64,000 nt of DNA from Eledone cirrhosa (GCA_964016885.1 OZ024759.1:3162001-3226000), one strand, 5' to 3'; positions 2,875 to 36,497 are shown, counted from the stretch's first letter. Notes: generated by a model from the sequence alone, not told the origin. Numbers and translations: made by a program.

Positions 2875-4935
2875 AGTTGTTTTCTTACAAAAACATAATC
2901 TGGTATAATGCTCCTTTCTCCATCTCTATTAATAATAATATTCCTAAATTATTCTTTAGTGCCTTAAATAAATGCTTCCCTCCCTCGCATATCTATAGTA
3001 AAATATTTAACAAACACACTATAAAATTTTCCTATTCGACCTTCTCCAACATCTCCAACATTATCTCTAAACACAACAATAAAATACTAAATACTAAATC
3101 TCTTCCTTCCAACACTGAATATCATAATAATAGTAATAGTACTCCCGACGTCATTGTAAACTCCAGGCTAATTTCTGCAAACCCAAACACGACGTCAAAC
3201 GCAACTTCGCTAAATGTTCTTAATCCCATTCTAAATCAAGAAACTAGTATTCCTATCGTAAATAACTTCTCCAATCCGATTCCTTCTATAGATAACACTA
3301 GGTCACTTGTTAATAACTCTGCTAATCTCTCTAATCGCAATTGCAATTGCCCTGTTAAAAATAAATGTCCTCTCAACAACCATTGTCTTGAAAAAAACTT
3401 AATCTACGAATGTAAAGTTATAACTGACACCAATTCCTTTTCCTATTATGGCTCCACTTCCACCTCCTTTAAAGCTCGTCTTTATAATCATCATTCGTCT
3501 TTTAAATACCAACTTTTAAAGAACCAACACGGCACTCTCAGAACTCATATGGTCCTTGAAAGACAAAAATATTAACTATAACATCTCTTGGAAAAAGGTT
3601 TGTTCTGCATACTTGAACAGTTCTCTATCCAAGACATGCAATCTCTGTTTAAGTGAAAAATTTACCATTATTTCTAATTTAGAGTCTATAATAAATAGAC
3701 GCACTGACTTGTTTTCTCTCTGCTTGCATAAATTCCACAGAACATTCCGTAAAGTATACAGCTAATATCTAATACTTTATCAATTTAAAATCCTTTTCTC
3801 AAAGGCACATATATATTTATATACATATATATTTCTTTAAAAATATACCCATCTTTCTACCTTATTTCAAAGTTATTTATTATACATTATATAATACTAT
3901 TTACTCATTCTATATTACTCCTATTTATCACTTCCCTTTCTTTCTTTTTTCCTTTTCTTTTCTTTTTTCTTTTTCTTTTTCTTTTAATTTCTAACCCCTA
4001 ATCTGTACCTTTCTTCCTAGATACTTCTCAATTATCATTGTGCCTAACGTAGAAACAATTATTACACAGCACAATATATTCTTACTTTATATCACCTTGA
4101 AAAAAATCCTTCGTAAACAGAAACATTTTTTTTTAAGTTAGATTATTCATCCTCAATTCATTATTTTTTTCTCCCTTTCATGCTCATCTAACTTATTCAT
4201 CCAATCTTCTACTTCTTTCACAATATATCTTTACTTACATTACTATTGCTATATTTTTATATTTTTTTTAATAATACATATCAACAATTTCTTTCCATCG
4301 CACATATTATTAAACACTTAAATATTATTCTTAATACATATTAACAATTTCTTTTCATCGCACATGTTATTAAACCCTTCAATATACAAACCTTAACTTA
4401 ACATTATTTTTCTCTTCGTTAATTTTCAAATTCTTTTAACTTATATATTATCTTCCAACGGTTTTTCAACCTCTCTATGTAAAACAATATATTTTTTCTC
4501 AGTTACAAAAGCTATCTCTCTCTCTCTATCAGCCATCTCTCCTCCTATCTCATCCTTCCTCATTATACTCCTCCCCCTCCACTTTTTACTCTCATCTCCT
4601 CCTTTTCATCCTTTCCACCCCCACCCCCACCCCTCAAATTTTTTCCCAATATCACACATCAATCTAAAACTACTTTTCATATGTTGATTTAAAACTGCAC
4701 TATTCATTAGTGTGTTTTAACCTTCATATCATGTCTCCCTATTTTATCTGACGAAAACACAAATGTTATTGTATGATGATATTTGTTTTTGAAATGCGCA
4801 TAATAAAATACATGGAACTCTTTTAACCATCTTTTGATCTTATATATTATTTATACTCCAGTCCTACAAACTGTAGAGTGCTTCTTATCCGATATCTGCA
4901 TTGCTTTATTGTACTACAATAAAACTCACCTCCTA
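2875..4935 (+). mobile_element. Penelope-like element (Naiad-like), 5'-truncated: linker, GIY-YIG endonuclease (frameshifted) and 3' UTR with HHR
   Basis: ORFs 2847-3575 and 3556-3765 contain IIWYNAPF, CNCPVKNKCPLNNHC, LIY...YYGST..SFKARLYNH, CNLCLSEK and LCLHK. Ends at (TA)n near 4935. Confidence 0.88.
4740..4810 (+). ncRNA. Type-I hammerhead ribozyme, intact core
   Basis: Stem I TATTTTAT/ATAAAATA; CTGACGA at 4748-4754; long stem II; GAAA at 4791-4794; palindromic stem III TGCGCA; AUA cleavage triplet. Confidence 0.85.
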
Positions 4936-5199
4936 CATATATACATATATATATATATACATATATATATGTATACATATATATATATTTATATATAAGT
5001 ATGTACACGTACATACATATATGTATACAGACGTACAGTAGTATGTATATTTATATACATACATGCACACATATATATATGTACGTATGGATTCACCGAA
5101 CATTTATTATAATGCTCGGTGTGTTTGTAAACAAACATCCCGTATTAAGCCGTAGTGTCTAGCAATCATCGTTGCTCGTTTGTTCAACACTGACAAAGA

Positions 5200-5242
5200 A
5201 CGCTGTACTAGTTTCAAGCTTATTAGCTATCGTCAACAACGT
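5200..5242 (-). ncRNA. Minimal hammerhead ribozyme variant (TTGACGA core) in an orphan PLE-end-like fragment (about 5085-5410)
   Basis: Minus strand reads ACGTTG-TTGACGA-T-AGCT-AATA-AGCT-T-GAAA-CTAG-TA-CAGCGT: stem I 6 bp, palindromic stem III, GUA triplet, C3U change. Confidence 0.65.
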
Positions 5243-5484
5243 ATACCTTCCTGCCGGATTGTTGAACGTATATACTTACCTTATACATATTAACGGCTGA
5301 GTAGCCCAATTTGCATATCGAGTGGGTTAATCGGCCGGGTACACCGAAAACGATAAACGGAAAAAATGAAACGAAATTTCATTTCCCACTCTTAGTACGG
5401 CTCTTACTTAAATATAAGTATGTACACGTACATACATATATGTATACAGACGTAGAGTAGTATGTATATTTATATACATACATA

Positions 5485-33476: not shown

Positions 33477-34033
33477 CTTAATATTTTTTTAAGGCAACGC
33501 TTGTAATAACTCTAGTTAAACAGGATATATATTAATAATAAATTATCGTTGTAATGTAATTAGATTATGTAATTGTTATTATAAATTATCTTATAAATAT
33601 TAGTGTAAGATGTATAAAAATATTTTCAGACTTTTAATATAAACAACTACAAAAAACAATCAATATTAAATCAATATATTATACATAATAGAAAACATAA
33701 AATATACAATACAAAAACAAAATATTTACATACAATTGCAATTATCAGTGTATATACATTTTCTTTATATTCCCTGAGCAAATTAATAAGATTTGTTTTT
33801 ATTGTACATAATTTGATGACTTGTTGGAGTGTATTAAAAGATAGCAACAATTTGTGATTAAATTGTTATCTTAAGCAACTCACTTTTTAATAGTTGTTGG
33901 CTGAGCGAAATTGTAAAAGCCTATGAGCAAATATAAAAAAAAATACACAAACAACATTTCCTTGTGTTATTACAACATTAGATAAAATAATTGAGCAATG
34001 TCGTTATATTTTGCTCTTATTGCACATTAATAG

Positions 34034-34201
34034 TGTTTCTATTTTTCGGCACAAATCCATTACGGCAGTCCATTACTGGTACTTTATTTTATCGAATTAG
34101 TAAGTATGAAAGTCGAAGTTAACCTCGGCAGGATTTGAACTTAGAATGCAAAGGACCATAACAATACTGCAAAGCATGGTGTCTGACGCTCTACCAATAC
34201 T
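34034..34201 (-). mobile_element. tRNA-derived SINE, diverged copy of the 14766 family
   Basis: Shares ACTGGTACTTTATTTTATCGA...CCTCGGCAGGATTTGAACT with 14766-14946. Confidence 0.75.
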
Positions 34202-36063
34202 TGTGTTGAGCTGGTCATTAATTTATGGTGGTCGTGCCTGGAGTAGAGCAATCGCTAGTTGAAATATTATGAACAAAACATTTTTATTTGCCGAAGAACA
34301 TATTTTCAATACTGTTTGTGAATGTGACGAAGGAAATACATTCTGATATGGAACAGTGTACAAAGTGTGTCTGTGAATAACATAATGTTACCTCATGTTG
34401 TTGTCAAGACATAATGGATTTCGTATATCCAGTTAGAAGATGAAACCTAGCCATCTCGGATTAGTTATATTTCATGCCATGTGTAAACGTGTTTGAGGAT
34501 AGCAAAATATGCGCGTTAATTATAATAATTAGTTAATAATATTACAAAATATACCTAATTAAACTCTTTGCTTGAAATTTTATCATTCTTCGTTTATATA
34601 TATATATATATATATAGAGAGAGAGAGATTTATCTAGTCCTTCGCTCAAGATTAATCTATAAGTTTAGATGTTTGCCTTCGTTTAAGTAAATATTACAGT
34701 AAGATTTTTAATATAAACAACTACAAAAAACAATTAATATTAAAACGAAAAAATTATCAATGATAAAAGAAGCGGATGCAACTTTTTTTTTTATAAAGTT
34801 ATATTCCTGTTTCTTTAAAGAACATTTCATTTTTGTTCTATTGTAGGCGAAATAATGCAATGGTTTAATAGGGAAGATATAACTTACCAATTATGTCTCT
34901 AACCGTGTAACGCTTTTTAAGCAGATAACTACAATTGAAAATACTAAAGAAATGGAACCAACAATTCAATTTGAAAGTCGTCTACTTATAGTGACAGTGT
35001 ATTACTGGTACTTTATTTTATCGACCCCGTAACGATGAAATGCAAAAATGCAAATGCTTAAAATTTAAATTGCCTTAATTCTATCGTCTGCTGTTTCATT
35101 AAAGGGAGATTATCGTCTGTATTTAATTCTATCGTCTACTGTTCCACTAAACAGATATACCTCCACTATCGTCTCTATTTATACATTTTAACTTATAACT
35201 TATACACATTTGATTTGAAATATTTTATCTAGTCCCCCCTCTCAATATTATGATGATTTCTTTCGAATGAAACAGTTCTAGTCCTGTAGAAGCCATTTAT
35301 ATATATAATTGAACTGAGTTAAAAATTCACAATATTTATAATTAAATAAGCTCATATATATATGTGTGTATTTATCTGTTTATTGTATTATATATAATGT
35401 GTGTATATACAGGATGTCCCCCAAAAATATATACACACTTCAACAGCATTCTAATAACTATTGCCTGTACAGGTAATCAAAGTGTCAATCGAATGTTAGT
35501 TTCGTGTTTTAACAGTACAAATTTACAATACACACATAAAACCAGTGTATATACATACATGAGTGTGTATACACATACATGAATGTGTATATACAATATA
35601 TATGTATATATATATAGACACATATATTCACGGTGCAACGGTACATTAAAATATAGATGCGGGAGAGGGGGGGTGTATATATAGGGGCGCTGGGGATAAA
35701 GGAGTGTAAAGCGTGTGTATTGATATATTGAAGGAGAGGAGCGTGCAGCGATAGAGTAACAAATATATAGAGAGGGGGAGAGATGGTATTGAAGGGGAGG
35801 AGTGCAAAGCGAAAGAGTAAGAGATATATATAGAGACGGAACAGATAGAGAGAAACAGGCGTAAGTAACAGTGGAAGAGATATAGAGAGAGGTACTCTGA
35901 TTGGTTGAAAATTAGCCAATGACATACGATCACCACCACCACGGCTATCCCCGAAAAATTTTTAAAGAAGCTAGGCATATATGTTAGAACACGAAAAGTG
36001 AACATTCTGTTGTTTCACACTTTTCGTGTTCTAACAGATATATATATATATATATATATATAT

Positions 36064-36497
36064 ATTAATTTTGAGTATATGTTGGTTGTTTACCGACACA
36101 TAAGTATGCAGATTGGAGCACTCGACGAAGTGCGCAGGTTGGTTTGGTTACTCCGGAGTAATGTAAAATAAAATAAAACAAATAAGTCAAATATTTAAAA
36201 TTTGGCTTCGTTTATTACTGCTATATATATTTCGGTAACAGCCATCTTTGGCTGTGACCTCTTCAGGCAGTCCGAATTAGTGTGATAGAGACGAGTACCC
36301 ATGTTGTTGAGGTGTTTAACTTTGTCAAGGTATTGACAAAGTTAAACACCTCAACAACATGGGTACTCGTCTCTATCACACTAATTCGGACTGCCTGAAG
36401 AGGTCACAGCCAAAGATGGCTGTTACCGAAATATATATAGCAGTAATAAACGAAGCCAAATTTTAAATATTTGACTTATTTATTTTATTTTATTTTA
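36064..36497 (-). mobile_element. Mini fold-back PLE-end element with two intact hammerheads (36217-36271 on -, 36390-36444 on +)
   Basis: About 163-bp arms around a GGTA loop (36329-36332), about 100-bp unique tail at 36064-36165, (TA)n both sides. HHR ACTGC-CTGAAGA-GGTCACAGCCA-AAGA-TGGCTGTTACC-GAAA-TATATA-TA-GCAGT. Confidence 0.88.

Follow-up and report, generated by a model that had tools for sequence, protein, structure and literature searches.

Nine Penelope-like element insertions clustered at (TA)n tracts in Eledone cirrhosa, five of them within the 3′ untranslated region of an older element

The closest described relatives of the elements reported here are the Hydra clade of Penelope-like elements (PLEs), which Craig et al. 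2021 (PMC8557442; all statements on it concern the sections, supplement and tables named or used here) define by RW[RK] and DKT motifs, a CxCX5C linker, CxxC and CxH motifs and the lack of a CCHH motif. The supplement of that paper gives (TA)n as the target in 26 of 27 Hydra families and includes one family from Octopus bimaculoides (Hydra-1_Obim), and its sections 3 and 15 describe nicking by a GIY-YIG endonuclease (EN), target-primed reverse transcription, and tandem and inverted arms; the (TA)n target, Hydra hammerheads and an octopus Hydra family were already known before this work. Insertion into (TA)n is also described among the MuTAnT and MINE elements, and MINEs carry hitchhiking microsatellites; unlike PLEs they are DNA transposons, and the portion of PMC4486113 used here ascribes targeting and carrying to different elements, with no nested loop. 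Here we describe a cluster of PLEs (E1 to E9) in a 64,000-nucleotide (nt) stretch of the Eledone cirrhosa genome (GCA_964016885.1, OZ024759.1:3162001-3226000; hereafter the window, with positions counted from its first letter), which is N-free and has a GC content of 36.5% in a genome of 3.0 Gb. We consider it very probable that the cluster represents nine PLE insertions that likely accumulated as one element after another landed in (TA)n, and that five lie within the 3′ untranslated region (UTR) of one older element. New here are carried targets with direct proof of nesting, young families with long UTRs, and an estimated ribozyme load. The Hydra-clade account, in the parts used, makes no mention of such cargo or nests, and a literature search whose scope lay outside subscription journals, Repbase and supplements found neither PLE nests in element-borne (TA)n nor a cephalopod hammerhead census.

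Self-BLAST, open reading frames (ORFs) and reading of the sequence place nine PLE insertions with coding sequence within 2870-32057, together with 3′ ends that lack coding sequence. Queries independent of the window, namely seven database homologues and an E6-family frame located elsewhere in the genome, gave ten PLE coding segments in 2875-36497 (33.6 kb); these amount to nine insertions, since the element at 14463-19116 has its inverted arm at 19117-21546. Paired arms are treated as a single insertion on account of their near-identity (2 differences in 1056 nt for E5 and 2 in 586 nt for E7). An earlier note on this DNA, made from the sequence alone, had proposed at least nine PLEs lying nearly end to end, with two endonuclease types and (TA)n at most junctions. 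All of this was borne out: both Hydra-type and CCHH-type (E6) endonucleases are present, and 15 of the 17 element boundaries scored by eye over 2870-36564 lie at a (TA)n tract, the other two being the 5′ end of E1, at a piece resembling a short interspersed nuclear element (SINE), and the fusion of F5200 with E2 at 5483/5484. That note's reading of the array was incomplete, in that it missed the single nest formed by most of the elements and did not name the Hydra clade. The features, with predicted hammerhead cores by position, are as follows.

2870-4934, plus strand: E1, 5′-truncated Hydra-type PLE (thumb, linker, EN remnant, 3′ UTR); ORF with CxCX5C linker; core at 4748
4986-5483, minus strand: F5200, about 1.2 units of a non-coding, retrozyme-like tandem repeat of about 420 nt; core at 5236, with C3U in the window copy
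5484-7631, plus strand: E2, 5′-truncated Hydra-type PLE; core at 7553 (U4C, helix II decayed); intact relatives at other loci
7632-7798, no strand: (TC)n(TA)n(TG)n tract separating E2 from E3, from sequence reading
7799-7905, minus strand: short inverted 3′ arm and tail of E3, the left end of the host insertion, matching the 3′ end and tail of other E3 copies
7906-11377, plus strand: E3a, host element with a broken reverse transcriptase (RT)-EN ORF and the start of the 3′ UTR; RWR, DKT, GIYRDD, CxCX5C, CxxC and CxH
11402-14443, minus strand: E4, nested Hydra-type PLE, 5′-truncated at (TA)n; internal (TA)n block at 12298-12427; core at 11572
14463-19116, minus strand: E5, nested Hydra-type PLE with a tail of about 140 nt (14463-14601); microsatellite block at 15583-16016; core at 14758
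19117-21546, plus strand: inverted 3′ arm of E5, same insertion; core at 21354 with a 104-nt helix II region; fold z = -5.4
21589-22829, minus strand: E6, nested 3′ fragment of a canonical CCHH-type PLE; GIY-YIG match; minimal hammerhead-like motif at 21773 with two core changes
22856-25153, minus strand: E7, nested Hydra-type PLE with a tail of about 105 nt; hammerhead-like motif without direct stem I
25154-25734, plus strand: inverted 3′ arm of E7; core at 25583
25776-26114, no strand: foldback with a one-sided extension, a (TA)n-flanked dispersed repeat of putative PLE origin; no hammerhead core found within it
26170-28801, minus strand: E8, nested Hydra-type PLE, 5′-truncated at (TA)n; (CA)n(TA)n block at 27032-27272; U3-A8 hammerhead core
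28802-30073, plus strand: E3b, remainder of the host 3′ UTR; core at 29945 (U4C)
30102-30298, no strand: tailed foldback of a PLE 3′ end; both strands bear a hammerhead (30155 minus, 30171 plus)
30422-32057, plus strand: E9, 5′-truncated Hydra-type PLE, 83-86% identical to E5; core at 31891, GUG at the cleavage site
32141-32498, plus strand: 3′-end fragment of another PLE family, (TA)n-flanked; decayed core at 32435; adjoins PLE ORFs at two other loci (L231, L246)
35251-35304, plus strand: truncated hammerhead end of the 30102 family, from self-BLAST
36066-36495, no strand: tailed foldback of a PLE 3′ end, flanked by (TA)n; hammerheads at 36266 (minus) and 36395 (plus)
45048-45253, no strand: decayed foldback belonging to the 30102 family, with a (TA)n tract on either side; lies outside the cluster

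The microsatellite-rich 3′ UTR of the older E3 houses five younger elements (17.4 kb). On its own strand the ORF segment E3a lacks a ribozyme, and 28802-30073 carries one but no ORF; searched for separately, the two match the same loci, and in 34 of 37 other copies E3b stands downstream of E3a in the same orientation, so that 11378-28801 (E4, E5, E6, E7, the foldback and E8) interrupts one element. The inserts are less diverged from their family consensus than the host, at 3.3% for E8, 0.9% for E4, 0.3% for E5, 0.3% for E6 and 0.0% for E7 against 7.0% for E3 (ages that rest on 150-320 nt and top-scoring hits), and the least diverged sit mid-nest, which suggests growth from inside. Among 26 complete E3 copies whose end was located by the aligner, the 3′ UTR has a median length of 2.6 kb (range 1.2-19.1 kb) with 1-15 tracts each, and nested PLE pieces occur in nine; BLAST adds two further complete copies, one of them nested. 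An independent E3 copy at G000:C4:83588720-83610870 (L241, L220, L240) has a 19-kb 3′ UTR within which lie a PLE ORF and two F5200-like units. New insertions do occur in carried tracts.

The carrying of (TA)n in 3′ UTRs, also proposed in the earlier note, is a property of four families (E3, E4, E5 and E8). At a fixed 3′ UTR position, (TA)5+ is present in 13/13 E5 copies (of 29), 9/9 E4 copies (of 19) and 7/7 E8 copies (of 19), where the denominators are the copies that reach both flanking anchors. The F5200 unit also includes a TA-rich stretch.

Targeting of (TA)n by the cluster families, which the same note had inferred, holds genome-wide: of 145 copies from eight families that lie outside the window, 135 have (TA)4+ no more than about 30 nt from the end of the pseudo-long terminal repeat (pLTR) or of the tail, compared with 8.1% of random positions, the copies being top-scoring hits in which some pairs are both arms of one insertion. 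Among the Hydra-type elements this covers E3, E4, E5, E7 and E8, with E1, E2 and E9 seen in the window or in passing. Two of the ten misses continue into the next ORF, three end in (CA)n/(TG)n, and five have a short, distant or no TA run. Independently of family, 45 of 56 hammerhead hits in 51 10-kb stretches have (TA)5+ no more than 330 nt downstream (background 24%). The 5′ breaks of 29 E5-family copies lie at (TA)n in 11 cases (one via a short inverted tail), run into inverted element sequence in 13, run into an upstream pLTR in four and fall at a short TA run in one. In many two-armed insertions one arm stops at the pLTR end and the other bears the tail, which is the start of the 5′ UTR of the next unit.

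Taken with the published mechanism, these observations suggest how such a nest could arise. The GIY-YIG endonuclease would nick a (TA)n tract, and the 3′ end of the RNA, with TA-like letters at the pLTR or tail end, would prime reverse transcription at the nick. Insertion would split the tract, leaving TA on both sides and adding more as cargo, such that the next element may land beside or inside the previous one and the nest would grow from inside. The predicted hammerheads likely cut a tandem precursor RNA.

Our genome sample contains 8 PLE coding segments in 510 kb (seven in 39 10-kb stretches and one in four 30-kb tiles), about 17-19x fewer per base than the cluster; since the window was itself picked for density and the sample stretches lie at hand-picked round coordinates, this contrast is a description to which no P value is attached. 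Several observations weigh against repeated (TA)n insertion as the whole account. The density of merged (TA)5+ tracts is 9.2 per 10 kb in the cluster as against 7.9 per 10 kb in random stretches, so the idea that TA richness sets the locus apart from the genome, as the earlier note implied, is rejected. Insertion events per tract are 15/134 (0.11) inside E3 3′ UTRs and 31/308 (0.10) in random stretches, which leaves a preference for carried tracts unsupported; the rate inside E3 is biased down because 11 of 37 copies (end unlocated, several with insertions) are excluded, and downstream of E3 the figure is 31/202 (0.15). The 100 kb upstream has 72 tracts yet 5 coding segments, and one random 30-kb tile has 11 hammerhead hits, equal to the cluster, whose ribozyme density is therefore high and not unique. 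The alignments behind the divergence ages are short, and a middle piece of the E3 3′ UTR of about 330 nt, found in 24 of 37 copies, is missing in the window, so that the E3 halves have no single clean rejoining site and a target duplication is unreadable; this points to loss between two tracts before or with the first insertion. Carried tracts are thus real but ordinary targets that do not explain the density at the cluster, and the excess needs repeated use of junction tracts, retention or chance. The interpretation in the earlier note is partly supported: targeting of (TA)n, its carriage in 3′ UTRs and insertion into carried tracts find support, and TA richness as what makes the place special does not.

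Retention is the most serious competing explanation: (TA)n would be hit everywhere alike, and a gene-poor, heterochromatic or piRNA (PIWI-interacting RNA)-type-trap locus would keep its insertions. We regard it as possible as the main source of the density, while leaning towards the other view. It accommodates the near-background tract density and the background rate at which carried tracts are used, the 100 kb upstream is likewise rich in hammerheads (44 hits) and tandem arrays, and no non-repeat gene remnants were seen at 2.8-52 kb in an ORF and domain scan of the window. Alone it does not account for five insertions at one position of one host 3′ UTR, separated by single tracts and least diverged at the centre; insertions occur in both orientations. 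Retention can supplement repeated insertion into (TA)n and need not replace it, and the density at the cluster probably also requires weak purging of insertions at this locus.

That the elements themselves make the (TA)n at their ends, by slippage or tail addition during reverse transcription, we consider improbable. All pLTR ends and most tail ends do finish TA-like and tract length is highly variable; however, 5′ breaks at many ORF positions abut (TA)n as well, E4, E6, E8 and E9 in the window have TA at both ends, the pattern is common to unrelated families including the CCHH-type E6, and (TA)n is the recorded insertion site of Hydra families in the literature (PMC8557442). An assembly artefact joining unrelated repeats across (TA)n tracts is very unlikely even though the junctions fall in low-complexity sequence, given that the window is N-free, the E3 halves are correctly ordered and oriented 17.4 kb apart, the inverted arms of E5 and E7 match at 99.7-99.8% with the one-tail/no-tail pattern of other loci, the divergence order is as nesting predicts, and G000:C4:83.59-83.61 Mb holds a separate, independent nest of 19 kb.

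The nest provides direct sequence evidence that a microsatellite-targeting retrotransposon can deliver new copies of its target and be invaded through them; in (TA)-rich animals this is a simple means by which repeats can pile up and genomes expand. A further step, which we offer tentatively and regard as rather unlikely, is that 3′ UTRs carrying their own targets set up a feedback that drove several families still active today, together with the retrozymes and foldbacks that parasitize them, to about 3x10^5 hammerhead ends per 3 Gb, the densest reported load we found, including rewired E7-like ribozymes in which loop II, in place of the upstream strand, would pair with the bases beyond the cut site; if so, every insertion would add more targets than it consumes. 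Young intact families (E5, with 834 codons, and E6) suit an in vitro PLE system, the next step according to Craig et al., which bears on the choice of (TA)n by the linker finger and on the formation of tails and inverted arms.

Eight of the elements (E1-E5 and E7-E9) carry Hydra-clade motifs, and E6, judged by its predicted protein, is a canonical CCHH-type PLE. A single ORF with RT and C-terminal GIY-YIG EN is seen in intact 834-codon frames of the E5 family (L048, L058). RWR and DKT are present in E3 and the E5 family, the other six Hydra-type copies being truncated before that region; the CxCX5C linker occurs in E1, E2, E3, E4, E5, E7 and E8 and is mutated in E9; and CxxC and CxH surround a conserved E and N in E2, E3, E4, E5, E8 and E9. 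By motif inspection CCHH is absent from all eight, and GIY-YIG domain matches on E2 and E9 are weak. In a quick tree of 43 rows (four window-family Hydra-type RTs, E6 and 38 listed homologues, named clade references not being among them), E3, E5 and E7 group with Argonauta proteins (Shimodaira-Hasegawa-like approximate likelihood ratio test, 97), E4 falls elsewhere and E6 sits on a very long branch. The E4 RT resembles Hydra-1_Obim, judged by eye.

Like the published Hydra clade, these elements have a C-terminal GIY-YIG domain, a mismatch at the base of helix II and GU[U/A/C] sites, target (TA)n, and show inverted arms with the tail confined to one side (PMC8557442). They differ in unit length, at 4.6-5.1 kb between tandem hammerheads for E5 (L326, L327) as against “generally <3 kb”, a typical rather than absolute Hydra trait; in tails of 40-140 nt rather than 30-40; in helix II regions of up to 105 nt rather than the 8-24 nt of the 26 Hydra rows of File S2; in 3′ UTRs that hold microsatellite blocks and tandem repeats; and in the many young families with intact 834-codon frames and the deep nesting. 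The helix II-base mismatch was rejected as a novelty because it already appears in the published Hydra table, as do GUU/GUA sites. Naiad elements, with an N-terminal EN and no canonical hammerhead, were ruled out because the EN is C-terminal in all full frames and hammerheads are present.

Full E6-family frames elsewhere have 873-1027 codons with GPKF, DKG, YVDD and CCHH (L320, L321) and give RVT_1 and GIY-YIG matches; alignment of E6 with E5 is restricted to the EN. E6 resembles Nematis and Neptune in GPKF, DKG, YVDD, two cysteines between the GIY and YIG boxes, a cysteine-rich linker, and a minimal hammerhead with an extra base before helix II. It differs from them in a U4C plus A6U core in 19/19 aligned copies and perhaps in its linker, which is spaced CX4CX6C beside their CX2-5CxxC. 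The end of its EN is nearer by eye to the Nematis rows of Fig. S2 (PMC8557442), and E6 may belong to either Nematis or Neptune. The E5 and E6 families appear abundant and young: the E5 RT gave 76,040 first-look candidates, which are not copy numbers, with 103 scored at 92-100% identity, and the E6 EN gave 17,670 such candidates, with 150/150 scored at 99-100% and 41, the window's own included, identical across the query.

The earlier note had also listed about 19 type I hammerheads. A core-like motif with a GAAA box lies at or within about 140 nt of all 19 sites with two exceptions, both defective (45120 on the plus strand reads CAAAA for GAAA, and 35251 on the plus strand is cut inside the core), but our own descriptor recovers 11 of the 19, plus two probable chance hits inside ORFs, and the list amounts to about ten families because inverted arms and foldbacks are counted twice. 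Shuffled windows gave 0-2 hits with a slightly stricter descriptor, a strict version requiring the 10.1-11.1 pair found three real motifs, and the motif at 32435 (plus) is absent from the earlier list. Seven of the 11 recovered motifs have a CUGANGA core and a cleavable NUH site. Standard libraries are blind here: a scan of the window with Rfam reported none of the 19 motifs and no hammerhead, only microsatellite-driven microRNA matches, and Pfam placed no domain on the intact Hydra-type frame at L058.

Family alignments give canonical cores in E1, E4, E5, F5200 and both foldback families, and variant cores in E2 and E3 (U4C), E8 (U3-A8) and E6 (U4C + A6U), with a GUG site in E9; U4C and U3-A8 are known natural variants (PMC4209133, in the part used). 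The minimal PLE hammerhead has almost no helix III and an extra base before G10.1-C11.1 (Cervera and de la Pena 2014). The claim that the motifs here are of this minimal type fails for all but E6 (21773, minus), the others having 2-4 more helix III pairs and a long helix II, which in E3 and E5 (61-105 nt) goes beyond the published Hydra table (PMC8557442). Folding is strongest for E5 (z of -5.4), moderate for E3 (-2.5) and E4 (-2.0), and at shuffle level for E1, E2, E7 and E8. The E7-type motif (25583-25690, 23010-23117) has one direct stem I pair in 20/20 hits; eight bases of its loop II are complementary to those that follow the cut site, a pairing that also appears in the predicted fold. 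The family is very young (1647 candidates), and an off-state or dead ribozyme seems likelier than a new topology. Several hammerheads look impaired or damaged by their sequence. The hammerhead load, with its natural variants (U4C, U3-A8, a 100-nt helix II, missing stem I), bears on whether PLEs need ribozymes.

Across the 510-kb sample the descriptor gave 56 hits (shuffles 2-5; bootstrap 0.63-1.67 per 10 kb), which by extrapolation suggests about 3x10^5 hammerhead motifs genome-wide (1.9-5.0x10^5 before removal of chance hits). Counts in the literature, made with other descriptors, are as high as 120,000 for axolotl and lie at about 9,000 for Xenopus (the latter in PMC4209133, in part); parts of two further papers (PMC13282606, PMC3088659) are also cited.

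F5200 contains a 79-nt direct repeat 419 nt apart, with consensus core CUGACGA, and genome-wide has 2044 first-look candidates, with tandem copies 410-424 nt apart. It shows the retrozyme trait of a 150-450-nt non-coding tandem repeat with one type I hammerhead. At L105 (G000:C20:3112001-3122000; also L104 and L091) an array of 17 units of 310 nt, each with a hammerhead, is split 11 to 6 between the strands around an inversion point; four 554-nt units of another family are also present. Both F5200 and this array resemble non-LTR retrozymes (PMC7229834; bioRxiv 10.64898/2026.07.22.740005; both in part) in being short, non-coding and tandemly repeated, each unit bearing a single type I hammerhead. 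F5200 differs from these in its Hydra-type ribozyme, (TA)n flanks and TA-rich cargo.

In the 30102-30298 foldback, the fold point coincides with the 5′ edge of the hammerhead in 14/14 copies, and the centre varies over 3-6 nt. Treating it as a unit like a miniature inverted-repeat transposable element (MITE) was not upheld: the family query spanned the fold point, favouring foldback copies, and the centre varies among the 14 copies, so that inversions arising many times over and independently at the edge of the ribozyme are no less likely than a MITE-like unit.

Within E5, a SINE-like piece at 14766-14946 lies inside stem I of the hammerhead (14749-14964) with an 18-nt duplication, and the same arm also misses 22 nt of loop II. 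Parts of the E5 3′ UTR (16193-16887, 19503-20464) are degenerate 139-155-nt repeats that resemble the ORF end.

To the right of the cluster, an RT fragment of a long interspersed nuclear element (LINE; 36565-38724, RVT_1 match), presumably RTE-like, has (TA)n on both sides and its 3′ end repeated in inverted form at the opposite end (252 nt, 94%); its end also adjoins (TA)n at L187, L212 and L293. It is either another retroelement that targets (TA)n and is laid out like a PLE, or a pair of insertions in opposite orientation. Two elements with long inverted ends (32525-33480, 209 nt at 98.6%; 38880-39914, 266 nt at 99.2%) lie next to or around (TA)n. Mariner-type transposase remnants occur among the repeats at 50308-50754 (HTH_48 match), 53060-55109, 60566-61441 and 63154-64000, and helicase-like remnants among the repeats of 50308-64000 are taken by us to be Helitron. 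Exons of an ion-channel gene (Ion_trans match), which we assume resembles the proton channel Hv1, lie at 56702-58756, and a 23-nt satellite runs past the right edge of the window.

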